Assembly (NCBI GenBank): GCA_030429545.1
Contig: JAUIFF010000001.1
Coordinates: forward strand, 467,599-531,598
Reading direction: 5' to 3'
Source: Polyangia bacterium
Lineage (GTDB): Bacteria; Myxococcota_A; Polyangia; Nannocystales; Nannocystaceae
Length of the DNA stretch: 64,000 bases
In this document: one piece after another, positions 1,782 through 51,494 of the stretch
Layout: every line of letters starts with the position of its first letter
Position numbering within the stretch: position 1 is the first letter of the stretch
Notes under the pieces: generated by a model
What the model was told of the DNA's origin: nothing
Database searches by the model: none
The model's input: only the letters and a program-made list of their open reading frames with translations
Program-made: the position numbers and the translations under genes

Positions 1782-3245
1782 ATGCAAGGCGCCATCCAGT
1801 TTGAGCTCAACGGCGAGCCTGTGGTTGTCGAGGGATTGTCCCCGACGACGACATTGCTCAACTATTTGCGGGATACACGGCGACTCGTCGGGACCAAAGA
1901 GGGCTGTGCAGAGGGCGATTGCGGGGCCTGTACCGTTGTTGTGGTTGAGCGCGGCGGGCCCCAAGGGCCGGGTTTTCGCGCGGTTAACTCCTGCCTGTTG
2001 CTCCTGCCACTTTGTCACGGCAAGCAGGTGTTTACGGTCGAAGCCCTACGCGACAGCGACTACCACCCGGTTCAGCACGCCCTTGTTGCCGCCCTCGGCT
2101 CGCAGTGCGGGTACTGCACGCCCGGCGTTATCATGTCGATGTTTGAGGCCTGCTACCGCACCGACCTCGATGCCGGGTGGAAGCTCGACGACCAGATGTG
2201 CGGCAATCTGTGCCGTTGCACGGGCTACCGGCCGATCCGTGATGCGACCACGCAAATCGCCGGTACCCGTCCGCCCGGGCGGTTTTTGAAGGTGCTGTCG
2301 AGCACGGGGCCAACCCCGCAGGCTCTCGACTACCGGCATCAGCAGCAGCGCTTTAGCGTGCCCACCAGCTTTACCGAATTGTTTGATGTGTTGCGCGAGT
2401 GCCCCGACGCGCGGCTTGTGTGTGGTGCGACCGACCTTGGCCTCGACGTCACCAAAAAGCACGTCACCTTTGCCTCGCTGGTCTCGCTGCACGGTCTGCC
2501 CGAGTTGGCCAAGCTCGAAGTCCGCGACAACCACCTGCTGATCGGCGCGACCGTGAACCTCGCCGATCTCGAAGATGTGTGTACAACAACATGCCCGCCG
2601 CTCGCCCGCATGCTGCGGTTTTTTGGGGCCCGGCAAATCAAAAACCGGGCGACGATTGGCGGCAACCTGTGCAATGCCTCGCCAATCGGCGACCTCGCCC
2701 CGGTACTGCTGGCCCTGGGCGCGCGGGTGGTCGCCCGCTCACACCGCGGGGAGCGGGTGATACCCATTGCCGAGTTTTTTGTTGGCTACCGCCAAACAGC
2801 GCTCGAGCCCGGTGAAATTCTGGCCCGGGTCGACTGTCCGCTACCGCCAAAAAATGCCCGGGTTGGTGCCTACAAAGTCTCGCGCCGGCGTGAGCTCGAC
2901 ATCAGCGCGGTCGCGGCCGGTATGTATGTCGAACTCGATGATGCCGGGCTCGTGAGCTGTGCGCGGATAGGTTTTGGGGGGATGGCAGCCACGCCGGCCC
3001 GGGCCGCGAACGTTGAAGCTGCATTGATTGGCCAGCCCTGGACCGCCGAGACCTGTACCCGGGCATCGCAGGCGGTCACTACCGATTTTCAGCCGATCGA
3101 CGACCACCGCAGCAGTGCATGGTTTCGCCGCAAGGTCGCTCAGAACCTCGTTGCCGGTTTTTATGCAGATACATTAGATTCGCCCCAACCCAACCTACCA
3201 GATCGGCCCGTCAGCACGCTGCTTCACGCCGGAGGTCAGCCATGA
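1782..3245 (+). CDS. xdhA: xanthine dehydrogenase small subunit ([2Fe-2S] + FAD-binding), Rhodobacter-type XdhA
   Basis: The N-terminal 2Fe-2S ferredoxin motifs are GCAEGDCGACTV and CGYCTPG. A FAD-binding/CO-dehydrogenase flavoprotein-like middle and C-terminus follows. The stop overlaps the next start (ATGA). Confidence 0.85.
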   Translation: MQGAIQFELNGEPVVVEGLSPTTTLLNYLRDTRRLVGTKEGCAEGDCGACTVVVVERGGPQGPGFRAVNSCLLLLPLCHGKQVFTVEALRDSDYHPVQHALVAALGSQCGYCTPGVIMSMFEACYRTDLDAGWKLDDQMCGNLCRCTGYRPIRDATTQIAGTRPPGRFLKVLSSTGPTPQALDYRHQQQRFSVPTSFTELFDVLRECPDARLVCGATDLGLDVTKKHVTFASLVSLHGLPELAKLEVRDNHLLIGATVNLADLEDVCTTTCPPLARMLRFFGARQIKNRATIGGNLCNASPIGDLAPVLLALGARVVARSHRGERVIPIAEFFVGYRQTALEPGEILARVDCPLPPKNARVGAYKVSRRRELDISAVAAGMYVELDDAGLVSCARIGFGGMAATPARAANVEAALIGQPWTAETCTRASQAVTTDFQPIDDHRSSAWFRRKVAQNLVAGFYADTLDSPQPNLPDRPVSTLLHAGGQP

Positions 3246-5551
3246 CTGTCAAACCGTCCCCAAGCCCGCTACACCAGCCCGGCCCCCACGAAAGTGGCTA
3301 CCGCCATGCCTCCGGCGAGGCCCGCTATGTCGACGACCTGCCGATGTTGCCGGGAACACTTGTATGTACAATATTTACCTCGCCGATCGCCCGCGGCAAG
3401 ATTTCCTCACTCGATGTCTCGCGCGCCCGCACAAGCCCAGGAGTTGCGGCCGTTTTGACCGCGGCGGAGCTTCCGGGTAGCAACCGCATTGGTCCGATCT
3501 TCCACGACGAGCCGCTGCTCGCCGAGGCGCAGCTCGACTATGTCGGCCAGCCGATAGCGCTGGTTGTTGGCGAGTCCTACGCGGCCTGTCGCGCCGCGGC
3601 GGCGCAGATCGAGTTCGAGTGCGAGGCTCACAAACCGATCCTCAACATCGCCGAGGCGATTGCCGCCGAGTCGTTTCACGGTGAGCCCCACACGATTGCC
3701 CGCGGGGATGTTGAGCAAGCCCTGGCCGGGGCGGCCCATGTGCTCGAAGGGCAGTTTGAAAGCGGGGCCCAGGACCACTTTTATTTGGAAACCCAGGCCG
3801 CGCTCGCGCTCCCGCTCGAGGACGGCAATTTCCATGTCTATGCATCGACCCAACACCCGTCCGAGGTCCAGCACATGGTCGCGGAGATCCTCGGAATCGG
3901 GCAGCAGCGGGTGGTGTGCGAAGTTCCGCGGATGGGTGGGGGCTTTGGCGGGAAGGAGTCGCAGGCGACCGGTGTGGCCGTGCTCGCGGCCGTCGCTGCC
4001 CAAACCACCGGGCGGCCTGTCAAGGTTTGGCTCAACCGCGAGCAGGACATGTTGATCACCGGCAATCGCCATCCGTTTGCCACCCGCTACCGCGCCGGGT
4101 TTGACGAGGACGGGCGGTTTGTCGCCCTCGACATCGAAATTTTTAGCGACGGGGGATTTAGCTCCGACCTGTCGTTGCCGGTGCTCGACCGGGCATTGTT
4201 TCACCTCGACAATGCCTACTACCTGCCCAACCTGCGGTTTGTCGGGCGTGCATGCAAAACAAACCTCGCGTCGAACACCGCGTTTCGCGGGTTTGGTGGC
4301 CCCCAGGGGATGTTGGCAACCGAGGTCATCCTCGACCGCCTCAGCGAGCAACTCGGGCGCGACCCGGCCGACCTCCGGGCCCTCAATTTTTATGGAGATG
4401 CGCCGCGCAACCGCACCCCCTACGGGCAGGAAGTCCGTGACAATCGGCTGCCGCGGGTGTTTTCGGAGTTGATGGCCACCAGCGAGTACCGAGCTCGCCG
4501 CGACGCAATTGCGACCTTCAACCGCAACTCGGTGTGGCGTAAACGCGGGATCGGCTTCGCCCCGGTCAAGTTTGGCATTTCGTTTACCAAGAGTGTGCTG
4601 AACCAGGCCGGTGCGCTTGTACTTGTGTATACAGATGGTTCGGTCCAACTCAACCACGGCGGGACCGAGATGGGGCAGGGGCTCCACACCAAAATGCTCG
4701 CGGTGTGTTGCCACGAACTCGGCGTGGTGCCTGAGCAGGTGCGGGTGATGCAGACCGCAACCGACAAGGTGCCCAACACCTCGGCAACGGCGGCCTCGTC
4801 GGGTTCGGACCTCAATGGTCAGGCCGTGCGTCAGGCCTGCGCGACAATCCGTGAACGCCTGCGCCCGGTCGCTGCCACCATGCTCGGTTGCGACGGTCAA
4901 CAAATTGTATTTACACAGGGGATGGTGCGCGGCAACGGCCGACAGTTGCCATTTTCCGAGGTCGTCGGCCAGGCCTACCTCGAGCAGGTCAGCCTCTCGG
5001 CAACCGGTTACTACCGTACCCCCGGGATCCACTACGATCACGCCAGCGGCCAGGGAGAGCCGTTTTATTACTTTGCCTACGGTGCTGCCGTGTGCGAGGT
5101 CGAAGTCGACGGGGCAACCGGCGAGCATCGCTTGTTGCGTGTCGATATCCTCCACGACGTTGGCACGTCGCTGGTGCCGACCATCGACATCGGCCAGGTC
5201 GAGGGTGGGTTTGTCCAGGGGGTCGGTTGGCTGACCTGCGAGCAGATGGTGAACGACAGCAAGGGCAGGCCACTGACGCTCGGGCCCTCGACCTACAAGG
5301 TGCCGGCGATCGGCGACGTGCCTGTGGATATGCATGTAAAACTGCTCGAGCGGGCGCCCCAGGCCGGGGTGATCCACGGGAGTAAGGCCGTCGGTGAGCC
5401 CCCGTTTATGCTGGCGATCGGTGTGGTGCATGCCCTTCGCCACGCGATTCACGGGTTTGGTGGCCGGGTCGTCGAGTTGGCAATTCCGGCGACGCCCGAG
5501 GCGATTTTGCGGGCGGTCGAACACCAAAAAACCGGTGCTTTGCCGGGCTAA
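3242..5551 (+). CDS. xdhB: xanthine dehydrogenase molybdopterin-binding subunit
   Basis: The product starts MTVKPSP..., with the ATG overlapping the xdhA stop. It has aldehyde oxidase/xanthine dehydrogenase a/b-hammerhead and MoCo-binding motifs (GGGFGGKE, FRGFGGPQG). The track ORF 3119..5551 extends upstream in-frame inside xdhA. Confidence 0.85.
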   Translation: MTVKPSPSPLHQPGPHESGYRHASGEARYVDDLPMLPGTLVCTIFTSPIARGKISSLDVSRARTSPGVAAVLTAAELPGSNRIGPIFHDEPLLAEAQLDYVGQPIALVVGESYAACRAAAAQIEFECEAHKPILNIAEAIAAESFHGEPHTIARGDVEQALAGAAHVLEGQFESGAQDHFYLETQAALALPLEDGNFHVYASTQHPSEVQHMVAEILGIGQQRVVCEVPRMGGGFGGKESQATGVAVLAAVAAQTTGRPVKVWLNREQDMLITGNRHPFATRYRAGFDEDGRFVALDIEIFSDGGFSSDLSLPVLDRALFHLDNAYYLPNLRFVGRACKTNLASNTAFRGFGGPQGMLATEVILDRLSEQLGRDPADLRALNFYGDAPRNRTPYGQEVRDNRLPRVFSELMATSEYRARRDAIATFNRNSVWRKRGIGFAPVKFGISFTKSVLNQAGALVLVYTDGSVQLNHGGTEMGQGLHTKMLAVCCHELGVVPEQVRVMQTATDKVPNTSATAASSGSDLNGQAVRQACATIRERLRPVAATMLGCDGQQIVFTQGMVRGNGRQLPFSEVVGQAYLEQVSLSATGYYRTPGIHYDHASGQGEPFYYFAYGAAVCEVEVDGATGEHRLLRVDILHDVGTSLVPTIDIGQVEGGFVQGVGWLTCEQMVNDSKGRPLTLGPSTYKVPAIGDVPVDMHVKLLERAPQAGVIHGSKAVGEPPFMLAIGVVHALRHAIHGFGGRVVELAIPATPEAILRAVEHQKTGALPG

Positions 5552-5586
5552 AAGGTCACGGCGAGGGCCTGGCTCACGGGGTGGCT

Positions 5587-5678
5587 GGCCTGGGTGGTCG
5601 AGTTGGCGATGCCGGTGATAGCGGTCGATTTGCGGGCGGGCGGTCGAACACCAAATAACCTGGGCTTTACCGAGCGAA
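5587..5678. repeat. degenerate direct duplicate of the last ~90 bp of xdhB
   Basis: Positions 5462-5551 (ggccgggtcgtcgagttggcaattccggcgacg...ggtcgaacaccaaaaaaccggtgctttgccgggc) recur at 5587-5678 (ggcctgggtggtcgagttggcgatgccggtgatagcggtcgatttgcgggcgggcggtcgaacaccaaataacctgggctttaccgagc). Identity is about 80% with small indels. Confidence 0.5.
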
Positions 5679-6114
5679 CCAGTCTCGGTGAGGGCACTGC
5701 ACGCGACCGGAATGGAGCGTGTGTTGCTTTCGCGTTATCTGTTGCTGATACATGAAAATCAGGGTGCCGTCGGTCGAGCTGAGATCGGACGGGCGACTGT
5801 GCGCAGGTGCGCAGCGATCGGTGCGTCTACATCCACTTGGAGGGTGGGGGTTGCGGACATGTGACCGTGGCTTTCGCAGCGTAAGCTTCGCCGGGTCCTC
5901 ACGGCCCCAATGACGGTCAGGATTCACGGAGGCGTAAAACACTGTCTACGCGGGTTGTTGTGATGTGCGTGAAATCGGTCTGGCTCGAATCGCGCAGTGT
6001 GCTAAGACGACGCGCAACAACGGCCCATGACAGCGGCGAGTGCGGGCGATAGACTGCCGAATCGTTCCGCCCCGCCACGGGGCCAACCTGTTTCCAACAC
6101 TGAGAGCGCTCCCA

Positions 6115-8608: not shown

Positions 8609-8969
8609 TCTTTGCTTGCACGGCCAAAGACTTCTGTGAGTGTGTTCAGGTCTCCGCGTAATTCGTCTCATAGTTGCAAAATACATTGAACCACGCGGGG
8701 GAGAGTTGATGACGCGTGACGCTTTAATAGGCGTGTACGGTCGGTCAGCACTGAACGAGAAGTCAGGAAACGAATCAAAAAAACTTGCTTGTACGAGTAG
8801 AAACTGCTTCCTGAAATCTACTGAATAGAATACATTCGTTTTCGAAGCATGATGCTGATCTCCTTGATGGATCGCTCAGCGCTTGTTTCCACCAGCGAAG
8901 CTATTTGAGATGCTCGTTCGGCAGTCTCTGCCCACGCCGTCTCCCATGCGATCCCAGCAGTCAGCCACC

Positions 8970-9515
8970 ATGTCCGTTTCCCTCACCGAAGCTCAGATCC
9001 GCGAGATCGAAGCAGCGCACCCCGAAGGATTGAGTTCCCAGGAATTGGTGGCTGTGTTCGCGAACAATCGCGTCCGGTTTAGCGAGGCAAACCTGCGGCG
9101 GTACGTCCAGCTCGGGCTGGTCCCGCGCTCGCGCAGGGTGGGGCGCAAGGGCAAGCACCTAGGCTCGCGCGGGGTCTATCCGGTTCGCTCGGTCCGTCGC
9201 ATCAACACCATCAAACGCCTGATGGCCGATCGCTACACGATCGAGGAAATCCAGGCGAAGTTGCTCGTCTTCAAAGACAGCATCGAGACCCTCGACGAAG
9301 CTGTCGACGAGCTGGTCCGGGTGTTTGAGAACCGTGTGGCTGCGGAACCTCCGTCGCCACGAAAAGACCGCCTCTCCACCGAACTCCAATCGATCCGTAC
9401 AACCGCCAGTGATTTGCTCACCGGGGTTCAGCGGCTTGAAAAATTACTCGTGTCTGCGCAACAACGTCGCCGCCCTCGTGGAGGTGGCGCAGCCAGCCCA
9501 ACTGAACTGCTTTAG
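8970..9515 (+). CDS. MerR-family-like HTH transcriptional regulator
   Basis: The MerR-type HTH pattern is [32 protein letters not shown]...[29 protein letters not shown], with a C-terminal coiled coil. The start is uncertain; alternative Mets are at 8883 and 8946. Confidence 0.5.
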
Positions 9516-9571
9516 ATCTTCGCGTTTTCGCCGATTGCACACAATTCGTCAGGTATCACGGGGCCAGCCAG

Positions 9572-10069
9572 GTGGCCCCGACGGGGGACGACATGCCCAA
9601 CGCCAGCCAAACCACCACCACTGAAGCCCACAAACCACTGCCCGACCCCAAGCCGATTGTCCGGCGCGCCCGCGCCAAGACGATCGCAATGAAGCGATTG
9701 ACCAAAGAGGAATTGCGGATCGGCGCCCTGCTGTACCCCGAGCGCAGCTACTGGCGCCCGCAGACCCGGTCCGAGTGCGCCAATGTCTCGCGCCCGTGCC
9801 CGTATGTCAGCTGCAAGTACCACCTCTATATTGATGTCAACCCAACCACGGGGTCGATCAAGATCAACTTCCCCGACCTTGAGGTCTGGGAACTCAAGCA
9901 AAGCTGCGCCCTCGATGTGGCCAACAGCGGGGGGATTACCCTCGAAGAGGTCGGCGAGATCCTAAACCTGACCCGCGAACGTATCCGCCAGGTCGAGGTC
10001 CGCGGGCTGCTCAAGCTCAAAGAAGAGGGCGGCGAGGATATGCTTTCGTATCTGTCCCGCAATGGTTGA
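9572..10069 (+). CDS. small sigma-70 region-4-like HTH protein with an N-terminal Cys cluster
   Basis: The C-terminus [29 protein letters not shown] resembles the sigma-70 region 4 HTH. The Cys/His cluster [18 protein letters not shown] sits upstream. The start is uncertain; an alternative Met is at 9593. Confidence 0.5.
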
Positions 10070-10080
10070 CCATACGGAAC

Positions 10081-10622
10081 GCGCGGGCCTTTTTGGCCCT
10101 GAAAACGGCCCTGCGAGGTTTGCAGTGTTTTGTCGGCAAACGGAGTGCGCGGGCCTTTTTGGCCCTGAAACGGTCCTGCGAGGTTTGCAGTAGCCCACTA
10201 CAGCGGCACCTCGCAGGCCTCGTTTCAGGGCCAAAAATTCACCGCGCTCCTTGGGAGGGACTTGGTCGAGTCGAAGCGTGGGCCTGCAGTCCGGCGAGGT
10301 TTGCAGTAGCGGCACCTTTCAGGGCCAAAAATTCACCTCGCTCCTTGGGAGGGACTTGGTCGAGTCGAAGAGCGAAACGGTCCTGCGAGGTTTGCAGTAG
10401 CGGCACCTCGCAGGCCTCGTTTCAGGGCCAAAAATTCACCGCGCTCCTCGGGAGGAAGTGGTCGAGTCGAAGCGCGGGCCTGAAGTCCTGCGAGGTTTGC
10501 GGTAGCCCACTACAGCGGCACCTCGCAGGCCTCGTTTCAGGGTCAAAAATTCACCGCGCTCCCTCGGGAAGAAGTTGGTCGCGTCGAAGCGCGGACCTGA
10601 AAGTCCTGCGAGGTTTGCAGTA
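10081..10622. repeat. tandem array of ~5.5 palindromic repeat units, period ~90-118 bp
   Basis: The core cctgcgaggtttgcagt recurs at about 10110, 10176, 10292, 10382, 10486 and 10603. Each core is followed by ggcacctcgcagg, its inverted complement, and is flanked by tttcagggccaaaaa or its inverse gggcctttttggccc. Unit 10147-10250 is an almost perfect ~24-bp-stem hairpin. The connectors ttgggagggacttggtcgagtcgaagcg are also conserved. Confidence 0.8.
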
Positions 10623-10971
10623 ATGGCTGCAAGAGACGATTGCGCCCTTTGTTCAGCACGCAAACTCCGAGGTGCGTGGGGCTGCAGCGTTGAGCTTGGG
10701 ACACGTCGCTCGCTTGCATCAAAGCCTGGATCTCGAGACCGTGCTTCCTACTTGCAACAACTTTTGCGTGACCCAACAACCCGTGGTCGGGCCGAAGCTG
10801 CTCTCGAGGACATCGCGGTATTCGTGTACGGGAAACGAAAATAGACTCATAAATTTTCAATATTTCAAAAAGATAAAGGTGTTTCTTAAAGAACAAGACC
10901 AAGTTTGGAACGTGACCAAACCGCCCGCGGATGTGGTTGACCTGCCGAGTTCGCGTTGATACGGGTGGCCC

Positions 10972-12555
10972 GTGACCGCACAAGGGGGAGGCCCTATCCG
11001 TCGCGCACTCGTGAGCGTGAGCGACAAATCCCAACTCGATGTCCTCGCCGACATCCTGATCGAGAGCAAGGTCGAGGTGCTGTCGACGGGTGGCACGGCC
11101 AGGGCCTTGCGCAAGCTCGGGGTCGAAGTTGTGCCGGTCAGCGATTACACCGGCTCGCCCGAAATCCTCGATGGCCGGGTCAAAACGCTCCATCCCAAAA
11201 TCCACGGCGGGATCCTGGCGTTGCCGACCGAGGACCATCAGGCCCAGTTGCAGCTTCATGGGATCGCGCCGATCGATTTGGTCGTGGTCAACCTCTATCC
11301 ATTTCAACGGGTCACCGCCAATCCCGACTGCCCGTTCGACGAGGCGATCGAGAACATCGACATCGGCGGGCCGACGATGGTGCGGGCCTCGGCCAAGTCG
11401 TGGCAGCGGGTCGGGGTTGTGGTCGATCCAAACGACTACGCCGCCCTCGGCGAGGCCCTGCGCGCCAACAACTTTACGTTGCCCAAAGCGACCCGGCTGG
11501 CGTTTGCCCGCAAGGCATTTGCCCACACCGCGGCCTACGATGCTGCGATCGCCACCTATCTCCAGGGCGAGTTGCCCTCGGCTGAGAGCCTCCACGTCGC
11601 CGCACCCGCGCGCCAGGAGCTTCGCTACGGGGAAAACCCGCACCAAAAAGCCCACTTTTATCGGCTCGAGGTGCCCGCACCCCAACCGGGCGGGCTGGCC
11701 ACAGCCGTGCAACTCCAGGGCAAGCCGCTTAGCTACAACAATTTCCTCGATGCCGACGGTGCGCTCAATGTCATCCGCGATCTCGCTGGCCTGGGAACGG
11801 CCGCCGCGGTGCTCAAACACGTGTCACCATGCGGTGCCGCCTATGCGCCCGTCGAGGCCAAGGCCAAGATCGCCGATGTGTTTGTGCGGGCCCGCCAAGC
11901 CGATGCCGAGAGTGCGTTTGGTGGCATTGTGGCGGTGACCGAGCCGGTCGACGAAGCCCTGGCCAAGCACCTGGTCGAGACCTTTTTAGAAGTTGTGTTG
12001 GCGACCTCGTACACACCCGAGGCCCGGGCGATCCTCAAAAAGAAGAAAAACCTGCGGCTGTTCGAGATTCCGGACATGTTTGCCGAGCACACCGCAGCTC
12101 CGTTGCGGATCCGTTCGGTCGCCGGCGGGCTGTTGGCCCAACGCGAAGATGTCATTGGCGTGCGCGTGGGCGAGGGCAAGGTCGTCACCAAGCGGGCGCC
12201 GACTGCCGCAGAACTCAAGGACCTCGAACTCGCGCTCGTCGTCGGCAAACACGTGCGGTCCAATGCGATCGTGCTGTGTCGCGACGGGGTGACGGTTGGG
12301 ATCGGCGGCGGACAGACGTCGCGGGTCGAGGCTTCGCGCCAGGCAAGTCGGCGGGCAGGGGACCGCGCCCGCGGGGCTGTGCTCGGGTCGGATGCATTTT
12401 TCCCCTTCCGCGACGGTGTCGATGCGGCGGCGCAGGCTGGGGTAACCGCGATCGTGCAACCCGGGGGCTCACGCCGCGATGGCGAAGTTATCGCCGCCGC
12501 CGATGAGCACGGCCTGGCGATGGTGTTTACCGGCGAACGGCACTTTCGACATTAG
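10972..12555 (+). CDS. purH: bifunctional AICAR transformylase / IMP cyclohydrolase
   Basis: Conserved PurH N-terminus ALVSVSDKSQL...LSTGGTA...GRVKTLHPKIHGGILA. Start is a GTG read as Met (as in the track). Confidence 0.9.
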   Translation: MTAQGGGPIRRALVSVSDKSQLDVLADILIESKVEVLSTGGTARALRKLGVEVVPVSDYTGSPEILDGRVKTLHPKIHGGILALPTEDHQAQLQLHGIAPIDLVVVNLYPFQRVTANPDCPFDEAIENIDIGGPTMVRASAKSWQRVGVVVDPNDYAALGEALRANNFTLPKATRLAFARKAFAHTAAYDAAIATYLQGELPSAESLHVAAPARQELRYGENPHQKAHFYRLEVPAPQPGGLATAVQLQGKPLSYNNFLDADGALNVIRDLAGLGTAAAVLKHVSPCGAAYAPVEAKAKIADVFVRARQADAESAFGGIVAVTEPVDEALAKHLVETFLEVVLATSYTPEARAILKKKKNLRLFEIPDMFAEHTAAPLRIRSVAGGLLAQREDVIGVRVGEGKVVTKRAPTAAELKDLELALVVGKHVRSNAIVLCRDGVTVGIGGGQTSRVEASRQASRRAGDRARGAVLGSDAFFPFRDGVDAAAQAGVTAIVQPGGSRRDGEVIAAADEHGLAMVFTGERHFRH

Positions 12556-12565
12556 GGACCAGCGC

Positions 12566-13852
12566 ATGAGCAAGGCAAAACGGATCCTGATCGTCGGTGG
12601 TGGTGGTCGCGAGCATGCGCTCGCGTGGCGGTGCGCCCACGAAGGCCACGAAGTCCATGTCGCCCCCGGAAATGCGGGGATTGCCCTCGATGCGACCTGC
12701 CATGCCGTTTCGGCCGGTGACATCGATGGCCTGCTGCAGCTGAGCATGCAGCTCGGTGTCGATTTGGTGGTGATAGGTCCTGAGCAGCCGCTGGTCGATG
12801 GCCTGGCCGATCGCCTGCACCACTTGGGCGTGCCGACGGTTGGTCCGTCGTCGGCGGCGGCCGAGTTGGAGGGTAGCAAAGCCGCGGCCAAGGCTTTTAT
12901 GGCCCGGCACAACATCCCGACCGCGGCCTATCGCACGGTTGCCCACCTCGAAGATGGGTTGGCCGCCGTCCGTTCGTTTGAACAGCCGCCGGTGGTCAAG
13001 GCCAGCGGTTTGGCCGGTGGCAAGGGCGTGACCGTTCCCGACACGATGGAGGAGGCCGAGGCCGCCGTGCGCGAGTGTCTCGACGGAGGCCGGTTTGGCA
13101 CCGCGGGCTCCACGGTTGTCCTCGAGCAACGGCTGTACGGCCAAGAGGTGTCGCTGTTTGTTCTGAGCGACGGCACCAACTACATGACGATGGCCGCGGC
13201 CCAGGATCACAAGCGCCTACTCGATGGTGACAAGGGGCCCAACACCGGCGGGATGGGTGCTTACTGTCCGGCACCGATCTTCACGAGCGAGCTGCGCGAG
13301 CGGGTGAGCCGTGAAATCGTTGCGCCTACGCTTGCGGGGTTGCGCGGGGAAGGGCGCCCGTTTGTCGGGGTGTTGTTCATCGGCCTCATGCTGACTGCGC
13401 AGGGACCCTCGGTGATCGAGTACAACTGCCGATTTGGCGACCCCGAAACCCAACCTTTATTGTTTGGTTTGCGCGAACCGTTGGTGCCACACCTCGCCGC
13501 CTTGGCCAGCGGTCAGCTGTCGCCAGGGCACCTCGCATGCGACCCCGCTGTAACCGTGGTGCTCGCCAGCGAGGGCTATCCGCGAAGCCCGGTGAAGGGG
13601 GTGGCGATCCGCGGGCTCGATCGCGTCGCCGATATGCCGGGTGTCAAAGTGTTCCACGCCGGAACCGCGCGCGACGACGAGGATGGCAAATGGATCACCG
13701 CCGGCGGTCGTGTGCTCGGTGTGTGTGCCAAGGGCAATGACCTGCAGACCGCGATCAAACGCGCCTACGCGGCCTGCGAGCACCTCGAGTTTGAGGGGAT
13801 GCACCACCGCTCAGACATTGGCGTGCGCGCACTCACCCCTCCTTTGACGTGA
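12566..13852 (+). CDS. purD: phosphoribosylamine--glycine ligase
   Basis: The PurD N-terminus is MSKAKRILIVGGGGREHALAW, followed by an ATP-grasp body. The ATG is at 12566; track ORF 12479 extends upstream in-frame over the purH end. Confidence 0.9.
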   Translation: MSKAKRILIVGGGGREHALAWRCAHEGHEVHVAPGNAGIALDATCHAVSAGDIDGLLQLSMQLGVDLVVIGPEQPLVDGLADRLHHLGVPTVGPSSAAAELEGSKAAAKAFMARHNIPTAAYRTVAHLEDGLAAVRSFEQPPVVKASGLAGGKGVTVPDTMEEAEAAVRECLDGGRFGTAGSTVVLEQRLYGQEVSLFVLSDGTNYMTMAAAQDHKRLLDGDKGPNTGGMGAYCPAPIFTSELRERVSREIVAPTLAGLRGEGRPFVGVLFIGLMLTAQGPSVIEYNCRFGDPETQPLLFGLREPLVPHLAALASGQLSPGHLACDPAVTVVLASEGYPRSPVKGVAIRGLDRVADMPGVKVFHAGTARDDEDGKWITAGGRVLGVCAKGNDLQTAIKRAYAACEHLEFEGMHHRSDIGVRALTPPLT

Positions 13853-13884
13853 CGCCGGGACCGGGCCCGCGGTATAGGCCAGCA

Positions 13885-15174
13885 ATGGCGAAGATCCGTC
13901 CGTTCTGCGCATTTCGCTACGACCTCCCACGCGCCGGGAAGGCCAGCGACTTACTCGCGCCGCCCTACGATGTTGTCGACGCGACCTATCGAGCGGAGCT
14001 CGGTGCCCGCTCGGCCGATAACTGCATCCACGTGATCCTCCCCGAGGGTGAGGGCGATGCTCGCTACACGCGTGGTGCCCAGGAGTTCAAGCGGCTGATC
14101 GACTCTGCACTCGTCCGCGACGACGAGCCCGGGCTGTACGTGTACCACCAACGGTTCGAGGTTGGCGGCCAGACCTACGTGCGCAAGGGGTTCATCTGTC
14201 TGGTCGAGCTCACCCACTTCGGCAACGGGCCAGTGCTGCCGCACGAGCGCACCCTCGCCGGGCCCAAGGCCGACCGGCTCAAGTTGATGCAGGCCTGCCG
14301 CGCTCACTTGGAGTTGGTGTTTGGCCTGTTCTCCGACCCCGAGCGCAAGTGGGAGCAAGCTGTCGGTGGGCAGCTGCAAAACCCAGTGCTCGAAGCCGAC
14401 TACGACGGCTCGCACCACACCCTTTACCGCGTGAGCGACAGGGCGGCCGTCGATGCGGTCGTTGGCCTGCTCGCCGATCGCAACATCTATATGGCGGATG
14501 GTCACCACCGCTACGAAACGATGTGTACATACAGCGATGAGCTGGTCGCCGCCGGTGCGAGTGACGACGCCCGCTACGGCATGATCTACCTGTCGAACTT
14601 GGATGACCCCGGGCTGTTGGTGCTGCCGACCCACCGCCTGATCCACGACGTCAAGGGCCTCGATTTGGCCCGCACGCTTCAGGACCTCGCGGCCTACTTC
14701 GACATTGTGCGTGAGCCTTTGCCGGCGACCTCCACCGACCTACTTGCGCGGATGCAACAGGCCGGGAGCGAGCGGGCAGCCTTTGGCCTCACGGTTCCGG
14801 GGTCGGGCGAGCTTTCAATTCTGACGCTCAAAGCCGACTTCGACCCGGCGAGCGCAGGGCTCGGCGATTTGCCGCCGGCGCTTCAGCGGCTTGACGTGGC
14901 GCTTTTGCACGAGCTTGTGCTCGACCGCGGGTTTGGCATTACCCGCGAGGCCCAGGCGGCCAAGACCAACATCGACTACTACAAATCGACCGACAAAACC
15001 CTTGCAGTTGCAAATGGTAGCGACGTTGGCAACACCCAGCTGGTGTGTGTGATGAACGCGACGCCGGTGGCCGATGTCATGGCCGTGTGTGACAGCGGCG
15101 AGGTCATGCCGCAAAAGAGCACGTTCTTCTATCCGAAGATTCCCACCGGCCTGACCTTTCGCGCCATCGACTGA
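13885..15174 (+). CDS. DUF1015-family conserved hypothetical protein
   Basis: The family-typical motifs are LLAPPYDVV and LPHERT. The length is ~430 aa. The start is taken at MAKIRPF. Confidence 0.6.
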   Translation: MAKIRPFCAFRYDLPRAGKASDLLAPPYDVVDATYRAELGARSADNCIHVILPEGEGDARYTRGAQEFKRLIDSALVRDDEPGLYVYHQRFEVGGQTYVRKGFICLVELTHFGNGPVLPHERTLAGPKADRLKLMQACRAHLELVFGLFSDPERKWEQAVGGQLQNPVLEADYDGSHHTLYRVSDRAAVDAVVGLLADRNIYMADGHHRYETMCTYSDELVAAGASDDARYGMIYLSNLDDPGLLVLPTHRLIHDVKGLDLARTLQDLAAYFDIVREPLPATSTDLLARMQQAGSERAAFGLTVPGSGELSILTLKADFDPASAGLGDLPPALQRLDVALLHELVLDRGFGITREAQAAKTNIDYYKSTDKTLAVANGSDVGNTQLVCVMNATPVADVMAVCDSGEVMPQKSTFFYPKIPTGLTFRAID

Positions 15175-22149: not shown

Positions 22150-22221
22150 GGCCTGGTGGCCAAGTGGTAAGGCAGAGCTCTGCAAAAGCTCTATTCGCCG
22201 GTTCGATTCCGGCCCAGGCCT
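22150..22221 (+). tRNA. tRNA-Cys (anticodon GCA)
   Basis: A cloverleaf was folded by eye. The acceptor is GGCCTGG/CCAGGCC, the anticodon stem GAGCT/AGCTC and the loop CTGCAAA (anticodon GCA). The T-arm is GCCGG-TTCGATT-CCGGC. The discriminator is U73, typical of tRNA-Cys. No CCA is encoded. Confidence 0.8.
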
Positions 22222-22223
22222 CT

Positions 22224-22254
22224 GAGCCCCGAGTTTCTCGGGGCTCTTTTTTTG
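22224..22254 (+). terminator. intrinsic terminator after tRNA-Cys
   Basis: gagccccgag-tttc-ctcggggctc followed by ttttttt. Confidence 0.7.
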
Positions 22255-22316
22255 GATATCACCCACATCCTCCCAAGGCCGTCTTCGCGCGAAGTCCCGG
22301 GTTATGCTTGCGCCAG

Positions 22317-23966
22317 ATGTCTGCCGGAGAGGGGTCGACACCGACAGGTGGGGAGTTCGTCGAGGCCGAGCTCCTAGAAGACGAGCAGGAGCTTGCGTCT
22401 GCATCGAGAGGTCCCACTCCGGTCGGGGTTGGGTCAATGCTCGCGCGCCGGTACCAACTGACCCGCCAGCTCGGAGAGGGCGGGATGGGCCAGGTGTTCG
22501 AGGCCAAGGATACCGTTTTGGGGCGCAAGGTCGCGGTCAAGTTGATCTCGCCTCATCATCAGATGGTCGATCCCCAGGCGGTCAAACGCATGTTTCGCGA
22601 GGCGCGAGCGGCCGCCAAAATTCGTCACGAAAATGTTGTGGAGATCATCGATTTTGTCGCCGACGAGCCTGCGTTTTTGCTCATGGAGCTACTCGAAGGC
22701 AAATCGTTGCGGGGGCTGTTGCGGGAGTTTCGTAGCGCGCGGCAGCTGATCCCCTGGAAACGTGTGTGTACATTTGTTGCCCAGGTGCTGGCAGCCCTCG
22801 ATGCCGCCCACCGTGCGGGCATCATCCACCGCGATATCAAGCCGTCCAACTGCTTTTTGGTGGACGACCCGTTGCGACCCGATCGGATCAAAGTTGTCGA
22901 CTTTGGCGTTGCCCGGGTTGAGCGTTCGGGCAATACCAACGAACACGGTGAGTCGCCGACGATTTCACTGGCGACCCGGCCGGGCCTGATTGTCGGGACC
23001 TCGCCGTACCTCGCCCCCGAGTTGTGGCTTGGCGATCCGGCGGATGCACGCTCGGATCTCTATGCCGTCGGCGTGATGACCTACGAATTGCTGCTCGGCG
23101 TTCGACCATTTCGCGGCTCGAACATGGAGCTCCAGCTCAAGCACACCACCCAGGAGCCAAAGTCCCCCCGCGAGCGCAAGCCCGGAGCCGGGATTCCGGA
23201 GTGGCTCAACGCGTTTGTCATGCGGCTGCTCGCCAAGCAGCCGGCCGACCGATTTGAGAGCGCACGCGAAGCATTGATGTTGTTGACCCAAGTCGCTCGA
23301 GATGAGGGGCTCGAAGTTGGTGTCGCTGCAAGTCTTGTGGCACCGGTTGTGGTCAAGCCTTCGCGCTGGCCGATTTGGGTGGCCGCGGGCTTGGGAGTTG
23401 CAGGGGTTGCCATTACCTGGCTGGTTGCCACCTCGGCGGGGGATAGGGGTGCACAACCCCAAGCTAGCGGACCCACGACGGAACTTACAGCTCGCTCCTC
23501 GGCGACCACGGGGGCGAGCCCTATCGCCGCCACGGGCTCGCAGACGGACACCGCGGTGAGCTCAACGATTGCAGATACAACTGGTGCGCAGCCCACAGAT
23601 GCAAGCACGACCGACTCCGACACAGACCTCACCGAGGGCGCCACCGAAGCTGCACAGGAAGATCCAGGGAGCGAGCCTGCGGAGGCGACGCACGGGCCAA
23701 AGTTTTCGGTGACCACGGTACGGCGCAAACTCTTGGCCACGTTTCGCACCTGTGCAAAGGAGCAAAAACTCTGGGACCCGCTCAAACTGAGTGTTTCTGG
23801 GGTCGTCACTCGACGCGGGGGGATCGAGCAGCTCGCCGTGCAACCATCGGACCGGCGAGCCTATGGGGTGATCAGTAGCTGCTTCTTGGCACGTACCAAA
23901 AAGCTTCGGGTGCCTGGGCCGCGACGCGAACATAAATTCCAGTCGCTCAAGCTCTCGTTGAAGTAG
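22317..23966 (+). CDS. Hanks-type Ser/Thr protein kinase with a TM segment and an extracytoplasmic Thr/Ser-rich C-terminal region
   Basis: Kinase motifs are LGEGGMGQVFEAKD, VAVK, HRDIKPSN, DFGVAR and SPYLAPE. One TM helix is WPIWVAAGLGVAGVAITWLVA. The track ORF begins inside the tRNA, so the true start must be downstream of 22254. The first Met is at 22317; an alternative is at 22437. Confidence 0.8.
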   Translation: MSAGEGSTPTGGEFVEAELLEDEQELASASRGPTPVGVGSMLARRYQLTRQLGEGGMGQVFEAKDTVLGRKVAVKLISPHHQMVDPQAVKRMFREARAAAKIRHENVVEIIDFVADEPAFLLMELLEGKSLRGLLREFRSARQLIPWKRVCTFVAQVLAALDAAHRAGIIHRDIKPSNCFLVDDPLRPDRIKVVDFGVARVERSGNTNEHGESPTISLATRPGLIVGTSPYLAPELWLGDPADARSDLYAVGVMTYELLLGVRPFRGSNMELQLKHTTQEPKSPRERKPGAGIPEWLNAFVMRLLAKQPADRFESAREALMLLTQVARDEGLEVGVAASLVAPVVVKPSRWPIWVAAGLGVAGVAITWLVATSAGDRGAQPQASGPTTELTARSSATTGASPIAATGSQTDTAVSSTIADTTGAQPTDASTTDSDTDLTEGATEAAQEDPGSEPAEATHGPKFSVTTVRRKLLATFRTCAKEQKLWDPLKLSVSGVVTRRGGIEQLAVQPSDRRAYGVISSCFLARTKKLRVPGPRREHKFQSLKLSLK

Positions 23967-24545
23967 TCCCCACGCGCTTTTTAGATGCGCCAGCAACGAA
24001 CTCGAAATCTTCGGTAGCTCCGTCGACTCTCGGCCGTCGGGCCCACGGTCGAAGTGGTCGGCTTGGCGGTTGCCGGCTCGGTATCTCTCAGGTCAGACGT
24101 CGATTGTGGTCATTGGCTCCGTATCGCGACCGTTCCGGCCGGTGGCGTCGTTTGATGAAGCTACAGCGACAGCACAGTCCGGGCGGCAAGTTGTTCGCGG
24201 CGACACACAAGGACTTCGCCAGCAAATGCTGGCACCGGCTTCTTTAGGGCTCTCGTCGCAAGATGTACACGCGGTGCGCGGGCTATTTTTCCCGAGGAGC
24301 CGGCCCGAAGAGGCTTGCAGTAGGCAACGAAAGCGGCGCCTCTTCAGTCTCGGTCCTCGGCCAAATCTCACCGCGACTCTTTTGGTGGGGCTTGGCTGTC
24401 TTGGCTGGGCGAGCTCCAGCCCGACGAGGCCACACAAACCTGACCAAAAGGCCCACTTGCCTTCGAGTTTGCGCGAAAGCAAGGTCAAGCGCCGAGTCGG
24501 AACAAAGCCGCGCCACGCCACGGTTGCTAGGCAGGCGTTGGCGCG

Positions 24546-25703
24546 ATGGCGCGACCTAGGATGCTCGCAAGTGGTGACAGCCCCGGTGATTTCCGGCAAG
24601 CTGCGGAGACAGTTTTGAGGATGGGCAACGATCTGACAGTCTCAAAGCGGCGCGGTGCCGTCGCCCGTACGATTGCTAATACATGTTTTGCGGGGCAAGG
24701 CTGGGCCCTCACGGCTGGCCTGTGGGTTGTGTGTCTATCGCCGGTTGCAGCGGCGGAAGAGCCTGCGTGTATCGAGGCTCGTGACTGTTACGAACTCGGT
24801 CAGGCATTTGCCGACAAGGGGGACCACAGCGAGGCGATTGCAGCATATGAGCGGGCACTCGCGCGTCTCGACGGGGCGGCCCAGGGTCCTGGAGTGCTGA
24901 TCCGACTGCGCTTGGCCGATGCCTACGCCGCGCGGTTTGACGAGAGCAACGACGTTGCCGACTTGGAGCAGGCCTGCCGTCACCAGGCTGCTGGCTTGCA
25001 GCTGTTGGTCAAGAGCCAGGCGGTCAATACTGCTGAGGTCCGTGCGGACTTATTAAGGCTTCTTGTGCATACACTAAAATCATTGGCCGCGACAAATGAG
25101 CCACGCTCGCTCGATCACGGGTGGCGACTGGTGAATGAGCTCGAAGCGATGGTGGCCCAGCCCGTGGCTGAGTTGCCCACCGAAACCCGCGAGTCCCTTG
25201 CATTTGCAATTGTCGAGCTGGCCGAGGCTGAGCTGGTGGTCGAGTACCTACCGACCCGACGTGCACGGGTGGCAGATGAGCTCGAAGCCATCACCTGGAT
25301 CCCCGTGGGGGCCGCCAGCGACCAGCTTCGTGTGTTGGTCGAGAAGCTGCGGGCGCCGCCCAAACGTGAGCCGCCAACGCCAAAAAAGCCGCCACCGGTT
25401 GAGCCTGAAAAACGGCCAAGCCCGCTCAAGTGGGCGGGTGTTGGGCTCATGGCCACCGGTGGCGTGGCCGTGGGTGTCGGCACTGGGCTCGTGATTCCCC
25501 CGCCGAAGTTGCTCGACGAATGTTGCCTCTACCGCTCCACCCGGGTGCCGGGTGCTATCGTCCTCGCCGGTGGCGTTGCGACACTTGTCACCGGGGCCAT
25601 CTTGTATGTCGTGGGTAAGCGGCGACAACAGCAAACCGTGGCGATGCTGTCCCCGGTGATCGGCGAACGTCACACCGGGTTCCAGCTCGTCGGCCGATTT
25701 TAG
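24546..25703 (+). CDS. TPR-like repeat protein with C-terminal transmembrane helices
   Basis: TPR-like helices (ELGQAFADKGDHSEAIAAYERALARL). Two C-terminal hydrophobic segments. Start uncertain; Met at 24621 gives a signal-peptide-like N-terminus. Confidence 0.45.
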   Translation: MARPRMLASGDSPGDFRQAAETVLRMGNDLTVSKRRGAVARTIANTCFAGQGWALTAGLWVVCLSPVAAAEEPACIEARDCYELGQAFADKGDHSEAIAAYERALARLDGAAQGPGVLIRLRLADAYAARFDESNDVADLEQACRHQAAGLQLLVKSQAVNTAEVRADLLRLLVHTLKSLAATNEPRSLDHGWRLVNELEAMVAQPVAELPTETRESLAFAIVELAEAELVVEYLPTRRARVADELEAITWIPVGAASDQLRVLVEKLRAPPKREPPTPKKPPPVEPEKRPSPLKWAGVGLMATGGVAVGVGTGLVIPPPKLLDECCLYRSTRVPGAIVLAGGVATLVTGAILYVVGKRRQQQTVAMLSPVIGERHTGFQLVGRF

Positions 25704-42232: not shown

Positions 42233-43921
42233 CTAGTTTGAGCGCACGCGGATGGCGTCGGCGATCACAACGTCACCGGCCGCAGCCCAACACGAGAGGT
42301 CCACTCGGTTCCACCCCTGGTTGAAGTTGTAGGTCCCGAGGTTATTCCACTTGCCGCCATTTTGTTTCATGTTCGCGTGGACCGTGGCGAGCTTGGTGTT
42401 GTTAGAGTCGTAGACCAAAAACGGTGCGGCCGACGAACGGTTGTTACCCGAAACCCACCAGGCGTCGACCGTGAGGGTTTGCGCCGATTCGAGGTAGAAC
42501 TCAAACGAAGCCGGGTCGGATACGGCACCGGTTGAGCGCCACCAGTAGCCAGTGTTCCAATCGGTTGGACCACTCGACGAAACCCAGGTGTTCGAGACCG
42601 AGATTTTGGCATCGTCGCCGTTGTACGACTGATTGCTATCGACAATGATCTCGAGGTTGGGATCGGGCTCGGGCTCAGGCTCGGGCTCAGGCTCAGGCTC
42701 GGGCTCAGGCTCAGGCTCGGGCTCGGGCTCGGGCTCAGGCTCGGGCTCAGGAACGTTGTCGTTACAAAAATCGTTGATCAAGCCGATGTAGTTGTTCCAC
42801 GGCCAGTTGGCACCGGGGTCAACGCGGTTGTACGGCTGCAGCTGCCCGTGACCAACAATGTGGTACTTGTCGCGCGGGATGCCTTGGTCGCGGGTGATGT
42901 CACAGACCAACTCGGCCGACGCGTGGATCAGGCCCTTTTCCCACGAACCCTGGCTGGAGTAGCCCGCGTGCTCGATGCCGACGGTAAAGTTGTTGCTCCC
43001 CGAGCCGTTGCGCCAGCAGTCTTTGTCAGAGTTGAGCGAACACTTGTAGCTCGCGCCGATGTGCCAGGCCTTGCGGTTCTCGGCCACCAGTTGGGAGATT
43101 TCCGAGCCGTTGTTGTTGATGACGTAGTGGGCACTTACGCCTGAGTTGGGGTTTTTGAGCCAACTCCAGCAACCGCTGTAAGAACCTTCGCAGGTGTGGA
43201 TGATGACCATGTCCGCACCCCACGAGCCGCGTGAGCTGTTGTTGGGGGAGGGCCGCCAAATTGAGGGGGCGTAGTCCGGGCCAGAACCGAGTTGGACGTC
43301 GGGGAGGGCAGTGATGTCGAGGTCGAGATCGAGTGCGGTCGGGACCGGGCCATTTTCCATGGCCGGGTAGATTTCGTCGAGGACGTACGCGGCACGTCCC
43401 TCGTCGCCTTCAATGCCACTGTACTCGGCGACGATGTTGCCCCAGGCGTTGAGATCGTCGCGGTTGGCGATGCCTTCTCCATCGGCCTGTACCGAAAGCC
43501 AGGCGGCGGCGGCCCGAATATTTGCAAATGCATCGGTTTTGGCTTCGAGCTCGTCAACCCCCGCGAGTGAGGCACCCTCGCGCAGGATGTCGCCGCGTAG
43601 GGCCATCAGGCCGTAGGCAAGTTGCTGGCCGTCAAACTCCTCGGTGCCAACGACCATCTGCCAGCGGGTTTCGACCAGGGCGATTGATTTGAGCAGGTCG
43701 ACGGGAACGCTGAACTCGTCGGCAGCGTCGTCAAACATGCCGGCCAAATCGTCGGGGCTTGGGGTCTCGGGGGTGTCGAGCCCAGGGTTGTCATCGTCAT
43801 CGTCTCCACTTTCGCCATCGATGCCGGCACTGTCGCCGGGACCCCGGTCCTCACCAGTACAGCCAGGGGCCATGGCAAGTGCGAGCAGAAACACAGGGAT
43901 GCGTGGGTATGTAGCTTTCAT
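42233..43921 (-). CDS. N-acetylmuramoyl-L-alanine amidase (Amidase_2/PGRP) lipoprotein with a (PE)n linker and a C-terminal beta-rich domain
   Basis: The start is taken at [21 protein letters not shown] (lipobox) within ORF 42233..44089. The Amidase_2 motifs are AHYVI...AWHIGAS...GIEHAG. A (PE)14 linker and a W/N-rich C-terminal domain follow. Confidence 0.7.
42664..42750 (-). repeat. coding hexanucleotide repeat (gggctc/aggctc) encoding a (Pro-Glu)n linker
   Basis: About 15 tandem GGSTCR hexamers on the + strand encode [32 protein letters not shown] on the - strand. Confidence 0.8.
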
Positions 43922-44194
43922 GGAGGAACTTCCCGAGTTCAGGTGTCGGTGTTCTAACACACCATGCGACAGCAACGGGAAGCGGTTTTCTGTGCACCGG
44001 TGCACAAGTCTTCGTGTGTAGATGTGTGCGAATACAACGTTTACTATGCAAATGGTTACATCGTTGGGGACATCGTCTACAGGCCTCATTCCGCACGTGG
44101 GAGCTGTCCCAGTAGCCAGGGAATCTCCAGTCGATGTATGAACACGCTCCCGCGACCAACCGCTTGATCAAAATACGGCGAATGCTGGGAAAGT

Positions 44195-48281: not shown

Positions 48282-48299
48282 GTTTCGGCCGCCTGCGTG

Positions 48300-48403
48300 C
48301 AATCGCTTTGGTGGTCTACGGAAAGGTCTATGGCCACGGCGATGCCAAGCCGGCTGATGAAGCCGGCTTGGGCCGGCTAGCGGCTAGGTTTCGGCTGCCT
48401 GCG
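48300..48403. repeat. tandem degenerate duplicate of the last ~85 bp of the POT transporter gene
   Basis: Positions 48211-48296 (caatcgctttggtggtctacggcaaggtctatggccacggcgatgccaagccggctgatgagcctagctaggtttcggccgcctgcg) recur immediately at 48300-48403. The copy has a ~20-bp insertion containing an aagccggct/agccggctt inverted repeat. Confidence 0.5.
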
Positions 48404-50536: not shown

Positions 50537-50660
50537 TGTGTGTGGGTACAACTATTGTGATGGCTAGAAGCTGATAAAATCCAGAGGATAGTGAACGGGC
50601 CAGTGTGTGCTGGCCCGTTCTTTTACGTGCGAGTCGCTGCCGATTTGTCACGCAAAGCTT

Positions 50661-51494
<834 letters not shown>

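Follow-up and report, generated by a model that had tools for sequence, protein, structure and literature searches.

A palindromic repeat array, probably a REP/REPIN- or BIME-like cluster, in the spacer upstream of purH in a Nannocystaceae-like bacterium

Introduction

What kind of element is the array of long palindromic repeats that lies between a gene for a sigma-70 region-4-like (sigma-r4-like) protein and purH in this Nannocystaceae-like bacterium, and how did it come to occupy that spacer? A first-pass annotation of the window, as we call the whole 64-kb stretch of DNA analysed here, had offered several candidates, among them a REP/MITE-like cluster of intergenic elements, an array of structured sRNAs and a recombination or architectural site, and had regarded the position as unusual.

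Results

The array spans 10081–10622 of the window and comprises four full units of 91–129 nt and two half units (Table 1). It is set in a non-coding gap of 902 nt (10070–10971) between the Sigma70_r4 protein gene upstream and purH downstream, in agreement with the gap of about 900 bp first reported. Pattern counts bear out the repeats at this position: a 19-nt core, CCTGCGAGGTTTGCAGTAG, occurs six times between 10110 and 10623 when up to three mismatches are allowed, always on the + strand, against 0.03 occurrences expected; a 21-mer of the right hairpin arm, TTTCAGGGCCAAAAATTCACC, occurs four times against 0.02 expected; and a 17-mer of the connector, TTGGTCGAGTCGAAGCG, is likewise found four times against 0.29 expected. 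TRF describes the array as a repeat of period 115 with 81% matches and 12% indels. Successive cores lie 65, 116, 91, 105 and 118 nt apart, spacings that uphold the earlier remark that the units share no common reading frame. Because independent short-read assemblies show the same left edge, one of them 100% identical, the array is genuine and an assembly artefact is ruled out.

Table 1. Features of the sigma-r4-like/purH spacer, its flanking genes and the second repeat locus (window positions)
Feature	Position	Strand	Description
Sigma-70 region-4-like HTH protein gene	9593–10069	+	Pfam Sigma70_r4, E 2e-9
E0	10081–10146	+	half unit: full left module GCGCGGGCCTTTTTGGCCCTGAAAACGGCCCTGCGAGGTTTGCAGT and variant loop; presence differs between strains
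E1	10147–10275	+	sole intact unit; hairpin 10147–10247, apical GTAG-CCCA-CTAC, then connector TCCTTGGGAGGGACTTGGTCGAGTCGAA
E2	10276–10369	+	decayed: inner right arm deleted, short loop
E3	10370–10471	+	truncated left arm, short loop; fold z -3.2
E4	10472–10588	+	left arm with 9-nt deletion, long loop; fold z -3.8
E5	10589–10622	+	terminal half unit: left module ending right after TTTGCAGTA
Non-repeated lineage-specific remainder	10623–10934		about 220 nt at about 60% GC, then AT-rich tract
purH promoter-like site	10937–10965	+	TTGACC, 17 nt, TACGGG
purH	10972–12555	+	Pfam AICARFT_IMPCHas, E 7e-101; 100% identical protein in NCBI
F1	24270–24411	+	solitary diverged copy, full unit (hairpin and connector)

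All units are assembled from one building block, a module of about 45 nt with the layout ACCTCGCAGG-(2-3 nt)-CGTTTCAGGGCCAAAAA-(4-5 nt)-CGCGC. A full unit consists of a left arm, which is the module in inverted orientation (GCGCGGGCC[TTTTTGGCC]CTGAAACGGTCCTGCGAGGT); a loop of 14–24 nt, TTGCAGTAG(CCCACTACAG)CGGC, that carries TTGCAGTAG...AGCGGC; a right arm, which is the module in direct orientation; and a connector of about 30 nt, TCCTTGGGAGGGACTTGGTCGAGTCGAAG. Left and right modules are inverted copies of each other and both linkers, loop and connector, are conserved, while solitary left modules (E0 and E5), both ending right after TTTGCAGT(A), bracket the array. Every inter-core segment is itself repeated and there are no unique spacers, which confirms that the locus is not a CRISPR array. 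This anatomy corrects two details of the first-pass annotation. The first 1.5 units are not inverted, as had been proposed: all six cores run in the same direction, and what gave the impression of inversion is the left hairpin arm TTTTTGGCCCTGAAA. This arm, reverse-complementary to the right arm TTTCAGGGCCAAAAA of E1–E4, keeps its full length in E0 and E1 only. The stem, put at up to about 24 bp, was estimated too short, E1 having about 40 pairs over 10147–10247.

Folding of single units and of the whole array, proposed earlier as a check, shows that the region is far more stably folded than shuffled sequence. The whole array scores z -6.7 on the + strand and z -8.8 on the - strand, and E1 alone reaches -80.4 kcal/mol as RNA (z -5.7) and -43.7 kcal/mol as DNA (z -9.9). 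The fold of E2 is no better than that of shuffles (z -0.6), and the units are decaying, the full hairpin being kept by E1 only and that of E2 lost. E1 has the long loop in common with E4, with 95% identity over 83 nt, and its connector is 98% identical to that of E2; the units are thus mosaics, the pattern that is expected of unequal exchange inside an array. All six array copies, and the second locus described below, carry the tetranucleotide GTAG, but in the apical loop.

We compared strains using Logan short-read assemblies that contain the same species in several samples and cover the left edge of the array. Over 10.2 kb, a contig from ERR3428548 matches the window at 100% identity before it ends inside E1. 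Contigs from SRR24075713 (99.79% identical) and ERR3428543 (99.83%) are missing the 66-nt E0, have junctions unlike each other (GGAGTGCGCGGG vs GGAACGCGCGGG) and end slightly further into E1 than the ERR3428548 contig. Short-read contigs from three samples end within the array, and since contigs differ by E0 and stop inside the repeats, array copy number varies between near-identical strains and the array breaks short-read assemblies at this locus; in practical terms, it could also serve as a strain-typing marker.

An ORF of 185 aa runs through the array, where unit spacings are not all multiples of three. We rejected it as a gene: in a HMMER search of 1.84 billion representative proteins, the sole matches besides the ORF itself were to two unrelated giant repeat adhesins and reflect repeat-on-repeat bias, and Pfam gave only a sub-threshold match to DUF983. 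The conserved protein across the array that the first-pass annotation had named as contrary evidence was not found, and neither the array gap nor the gap that holds the second locus contains a supported ORF. Among the 40-odd window genes scanned, we found no transposase, integrase, RAYT, Cas protein or reverse transcriptase. Several further readings were considered and set aside. For an integron attC array, the arms CTGAAAC and GTTTCAG disagree, by inspection, with the consensus RYYYAAC...GTTRRRY of the core sites, and the window holds no integrase; for a retron msr/msd, no RVT domain is present in the flanking genes; and type I toxin-antitoxin and sigma-54 promoter readings were dropped on inspection.

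The first-pass annotation had suggested searching for the unit elsewhere, and such a search finds a second locus, F1, within the 64-kb window. F1 lies 13.7 kb from the array, in the 579 nt that separate a Ser/Thr kinase gene from a TPR gene. A window-wide repeat search aligns it to the array units at 64–68% ungapped identity, and in homology tests that kept F1 out of the query models it is recovered by nhmmer with E1 alone as query (E 4.7e-10 over 126 of 146 positions) and by an HMM of E1–E4 (E 2.1e-8). F1 retains the sequence of the hairpin base (GTGCGCGGGC and CACCGCG) and of the apical loop (TTGCAGTAG...AGCGGC), and its connector is conserved in part. The stem interior is altered yet still pairs, with TGCGAGGT/ACCTCGCA changed to GAAGAGGC/GCCTCTTC and, in a second paired stem change, GGCCCTGAAA/TTTCAGGGCC changed to CCCGAGGA/TCCTCGG. 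Projected onto the E1 fold through a MAFFT alignment, 89.5% of F1 cells pair and seven pairs are changed on both sides, a number reached by none of 500 shuffles, with slid controls giving 0–2. These two-sided changes, all of them contributed by F1 alone, indicate that both arms changed together, which could reflect selection for pairing or descent from a different palindromic master copy. In strains 99.1–99.2% identical to the window F1 is present with three substitutions, one of which adds a base pair and another of which turns the loop GTAG into GTGG. Because F1 is significantly homologous to the units and keeps the hairpin through seven two-sided changes, the array and F1 are, on this comparison, members of a small dispersed family.

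A covariance model run with filters off found no further copies in the 64-kb window and 11 kb of extra sequence from the same species, so that two loci are seen in about 75 kb of this genome, and it found no unit in the loci of relatives. Short-read contigs pass through F1 unbroken, and another copy sharing a long exact stretch with F1 would therefore be unlikely elsewhere, assuming an assembler word size of about 31 nt. A candidate third copy at 26.9 kb (nhmmer E 0.034, covariance model E 0.36) was rejected; it lies inside a conserved TPR gene and is without the hairpin. Degenerate extra units beside F1 or in the tail at 10623–10934 were not significant.

F1 supplies evidence on both sides of the proposal that the array is a set of sibling sRNAs or another structured RNA, in which each unit would give an RNA of about 130 nt with a functional apical loop, UUGCAGUAG..AGCGGC. 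The RNAs would either have their own promoters or be processed from the 3′ UTR of the sigma-r4-like mRNA. We consider this quite unlikely. The array and F1 have the sequences of loop and base in common while the hairpin is kept by two-sided changes, both loci are oriented as their flanking genes are, and two invariant T.G pairs lengthen the stem on the + strand only. Listeria LhrC1-4 form a sibling sRNA array of this kind, with tandem structured units of about 100 nt in one intergenic region, and the present array resembles it in having several structured units of about 100 nt in tandem in one intergenic region. Unlike those of LhrC1-4, however, its units are without a recognisable promoter or terminator and some are truncated or decayed. 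By consensus scan and inspection no promoter- or terminator-like site recurs per unit; the scan finds no promoter within the array, and the one terminator-like site that it reports lies in E0. No Rfam family was found in the array at gathering score or at permissive E-values, the only signal being sub-threshold miRNA-precursor noise, which is typical for any long hairpin. The truncated and decayed units, including the unfolded E2, argue against selection on each copy; G.U and A.C counts in F1 (3 vs 4) show no strand bias; and both the array and F1 are missing in the sister species. The suggestion of an array of structured sRNAs thus lacks support in the absent per-unit promoters and terminators, the absent Rfam match and the decaying units.

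Comparison with relatives identifies what the array stands in place of. The gene order M74 peptidase, MerR-like, sigma-r4-like, purH, purD, DUF1015, hisS, purA is kept in four distant relatives (L019–L022), in which the sigma-r4-like/purH gap measures 50–190 nt. The location of a sigma-r4-like gene beside purH, which had been called unusual, is therefore conserved family synteny, the novelty being confined to the inserted segment. In the closest available species (purH 89% identical in amino acids; locus L028, assembly GCA_964621785.1 and Logan contigs L040 and L041), the gap measures 219 nt and contains a canonical intrinsic terminator (GAGGGAGGTT...AACCTCCCTCGGCTTTTT), an AT-rich tract and a promoter-like TTGACC-N17/18-TAnnnn, and the array is absent from this gap in L028, L040 and L041. 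L041, 96.7% identical to the window over the upstream genes, keeps the terminator state. Homology between the window and L028 stops at the sigma-r4-like stop codon and resumes at 10935, such that 862 nt in the window (the array, about 220 unique nt and an AT-rich tract) replace 181 nt of the closest species. Because the gap in relatives is only 50–220 nt and the closest species has a canonical terminator, sequence comparison indicates that the 862 nt that include the array are a recent replacement specific to this lineage. F1 is likewise absent in the closest species from the corresponding gap downstream of the kinase.

The sigma-r4-like protein is on record in its 158-aa ATG form, which exists in exactly that form in NCBI and Logan, and has 7531 homologues, those named being from Nannocystaceae/Myxococcota. 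The purH protein is about 70% identical to those of Nannocystis, Enhygromyxa and Plesiocystis, which, with the names of homologues, marks the organism as an uncultured, marine-type and Nannocystaceae-like member of Myxococcota. The gene is followed in order by purD, a DUF1015 gene, hisS and purA. Nothing in the sister species corresponds to the stretch at 10623–10934, which also resembles no other part of the window and whose ORFs are without a Pfam match. The promoter-like TTGACC-N17/18-TAnnnn directly upstream of purH is found also in L019, L021, L022 and L028, by inspection of the alignments of relatives and not by a promoter predictor.

Several features of these neighbourhoods are of separate interest. 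The MerR-like gene and the Cys-rich sigma-r4-like gene (8883–10069) are a conserved pair directly upstream of purH-purD-hisS-purA across Nannocystaceae-like genomes, and the sigma-r4-like protein shows about 80–93% amino acid identity among loci L019–L022 and L028, against about 70% for purH. The DUF1015 gene (13849–15174) is present in the window and the four distant relatives and missing in the closest sister species, where hisS follows purD directly (L028 3752–3823). The neighbourhood of the kinase is also rearranged between the window species and the sister species: downstream of the kinase (24546–25703 in the window vs L032 6453–13525), the sister species has about 7 kb of other genes, encoding an ECF sigma factor, a sigma-54 activator, an RCC1-repeat protein and a large kinase-TPR protein, before the common 729-aa TPR gene.

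The terminator at this site in relatives raises the possibility of a purely local minisatellite, in which a once-unique hairpin, for example the gene's own terminator, was duplicated in place with no family elsewhere. The array does sit at the site of the terminator hairpin of relatives and its copy number is polymorphic. As an ancestor of the unit the sister terminator looked plausible by eye, but it was rejected: 63–387 of 500 shuffles score at least as high in local alignment, and the terminator is thus without significant similarity to the unit. F1, a significant homologue 13.7 kb away, contradicts a purely local origin, which we hold to be extremely unlikely.

A MITE-type non-autonomous transposon, derived from an IS, moved by a DDE transposase through terminal inverted repeats (GCGCGG...CCGCGC) and later amplified in tandem, would agree with the absence of the sites in relatives. 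The inverted termini GTGCGCGGGC and CACCGCGC are conserved in the array and in F1 while the interior has diverged, and the copies are 100–140 nt long and extragenic. The palindrome, however, reaches nearly to the centre instead of occupying the termini alone; the empty sites of relatives are too diverged to align and thus define no target-site duplication; and the window holds no parent IS or transposase. A MITE origin in this strict sense appears quite improbable.

Exact-pattern scans for relatives of the repeat in 185,579 species genomes (one per species), JGI metagenomes and IMG/VR found none, and neither did BLAST against plasmid and phage collections. A hairpin-pattern scan returned 18 loci in MAGs of Omnitrophota, Chloroflexota and Roizmanbacteria, which have the queried stem alone in common with the array and not its flanks; we treat these, on sequence grounds, as unrelated hairpin families. 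Matches of the right-arm 21-mer in metagenomes and viral contigs were set aside as chance matches inside coding-like sequence. One of the Omnitrophota MAGs (L001–L017, JAZDOS01) carries a dispersed palindrome of about 60 nt, ATACAACCTGCGAGGTTTGCCGGCAGCTATCTACCNGTTAACCTCGCAGGTTGTAT, in at least 13 copies, which has only a 10-nt stem and TTGC in common with the window unit, and similar short perfect palindromes occur in the Chloroflexota MAGs. Hairpin families with that stem number four or five independent ones, slightly above a rough chance estimate of 1–3.

Discussion

The reading that fits best is that the array is probably a lineage-specific non-coding cluster of palindromic repeats of the REP/REPIN or BIME kind that has been amplified in tandem. 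The REP/MITE-like intergenic cluster among the initial candidates thus finds the most support, in the hairpins of inverted modules, the conserved linkers, the second copy, the absence from sister species and the variation between strains. In a recent ancestor, one unit may have entered the sigma-r4-like/purH spacer, or been brought in by recombination, and taken the place of an ordinary intrinsic terminator. Unequal recombination or replication slippage between units would then have multiplied it head to tail. Array copy number is still changing between strains, and units decay by short deletions. With the ancestral terminator lost and its own start only 12 nt past the stop codon, the array would be expected in the 3′ end of the upstream mRNA, and purH would rely on the conserved promoter of its own. 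An established role of REP elements in E. coli operons is at 3′ ends, as exonuclease barriers or partial terminators, and by analogy the stable hairpins of the array could shield the upstream transcript from 3′ exonucleases or act as a partial terminator. We infer mobility, the mechanism of amplification and these transcript effects.

The array shares with REP elements and BIMEs an extragenic location, an imperfect stem-loop palindrome and units of alternating orientation with conserved linkers. E. coli BIME-2 elements consist of alternating palindromic units with two alternating conserved linkers and a variable repeat number, and the array resembles BIME-2/REP clusters in its alternating orientation, its two linkers, its co-directional flanking genes and its period of about 100 nt. 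REP/BIME elements have tens to hundreds of copies dispersed over the genome; of the present unit, two loci are seen in the 64-kb window and 11 kb of added sequence. The array differs from BIME-2/REP clusters in sequence, in that no related repeat was found by exact-pattern scans of genomes, metagenomes and viruses or by plasmid and phage BLAST. E. coli BIMEs bind gyrase or IHF, and the BIME-2-like layout, in which inverted units alternate and linkers are of two types, together with the strong cruciform potential of the region, would by analogy suit a DNA-level protein-binding or architectural array, or a recombination site. Such a role seems very improbable, since no dedicated protein co-occurs, the adjacent HTH genes are present also in relatives that have no array, copy number is variable and units are decaying.

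The unit also has the defining build of a REPIN, two inverted modules and a spacer that form one long hairpin with compensatory changes. In Pseudomonas fluorescens SBW25, ordered REPIN clusters are tandem REPINs that include flanking sequence, the largest of them holding four REPINs and one REP in more than 700 bp, and compensatory hairpin changes are common in REPINs (PMC3116915). The array is like these clusters (Bertels & Rainey 2011) in its two inverted modules, its long hairpin of about 70–110 nt with conserved ends, its extragenic location, its head-to-tail succession of hairpin and flank and its compensatory stem changes; it has four full units and half units where the largest SBW25 cluster has four REPINs and an extra REP. 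SBW25 REPINs exist in hundreds of near-identical copies; of the present unit, two loci are seen in about 75 kb, and no RAYT is known here, none being among the window genes scanned. The modules of the unit are longer (about 45 nt) than those of SBW25 REPINs, and a small palindromic core, GGGCC-TTTTT-GGCCC, is present in the left module only. The phylum also differs, the array being in Myxococcota, and we found no description of REPINs in Myxococcota in the literature searched. REP families carry a conserved GTAG (or CGTC) tetranucleotide at one end of the REP stem (PMC3733652). Every window copy has GTAG, the tag of one set of REP families (Di Nocera et al. 2013, PMC3733652), but it lies in the apical loop between the modules and not at the stem foot, and it is GTGG in the strain variant of F1.

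Membership of the REPIN-RAYT system proper cannot be claimed, as a RAYT and a high copy number would lie beyond the approximately 75 kb examined and GTAG is in the loop. F1, only 64–68% identical to the array units, gives no sign of recent transposition in its sequence, and since the connector is present in it as well, F1 could be a segmental copy of one array period instead of a transposed REPIN. A possible but fairly unlikely alternative is an undescribed long-hairpin family of the Nannocystaceae-like lineage, mobile through a non-RAYT enzyme or acting as a structured RNA with a functional apical loop, whose cluster has taken over the terminator or 3′-end role.

If the favoured reading of a REP/REPIN- or BIME-like cluster is true, such clusters extend to Myxococcota. 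The array would open no new category of system, being a known kind of bacterial repeat. The locus would offer a clean before-and-after case, with a textbook terminator in sister lineages and a growing and shrinking hairpin array in the present one, a comparison that could serve the study of how such clusters originate and how they affect the transcripts of their neighbours.

Other repeats and features in the window

Other repeats in the window are of different kinds. A 127-nt tandem duplication at 5509–5695, with 60-nt cores 82% identical, copies the last 40 nt or so of the gene for a molybdopterin dehydrogenase large subunit (3119–5551) and the following sequence into the 488-nt downstream gap. 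At 48209–48371, an 89-nt tandem duplication (74-nt cores, 92% identical) of the 3′ end of an MFS/POT transporter gene (46863–48281) gives a second C-terminal coding end just past the stop codon. Inside an ORF at 50607–51389 that has no Pfam match, 44 TCGCCG hexamers (50929–51192) read on the + strand as a long (Ala-Val/Ile)n. A minus-strand amidase/Golvesin_C gene (42233–44089) contains about 15 copies of GGGCTC at 42659–42751; they encode a (Glu-Pro)n linker, which gave a spurious Pfam match to the trypanosome PARP repeat.

A tRNA-Cys(GCA) lies at 22150–22222, overlapped by a long ORF (22164–23966) whose kinase is recorded in its 509-aa form. In Logan contigs from three samples the first 29 nt do not align, and in each the alignment with the window begins at 22255, some 30 nt past the tRNA; this common starting point suggests repeated or rearranged sequence near tRNA-Cys(GCA).
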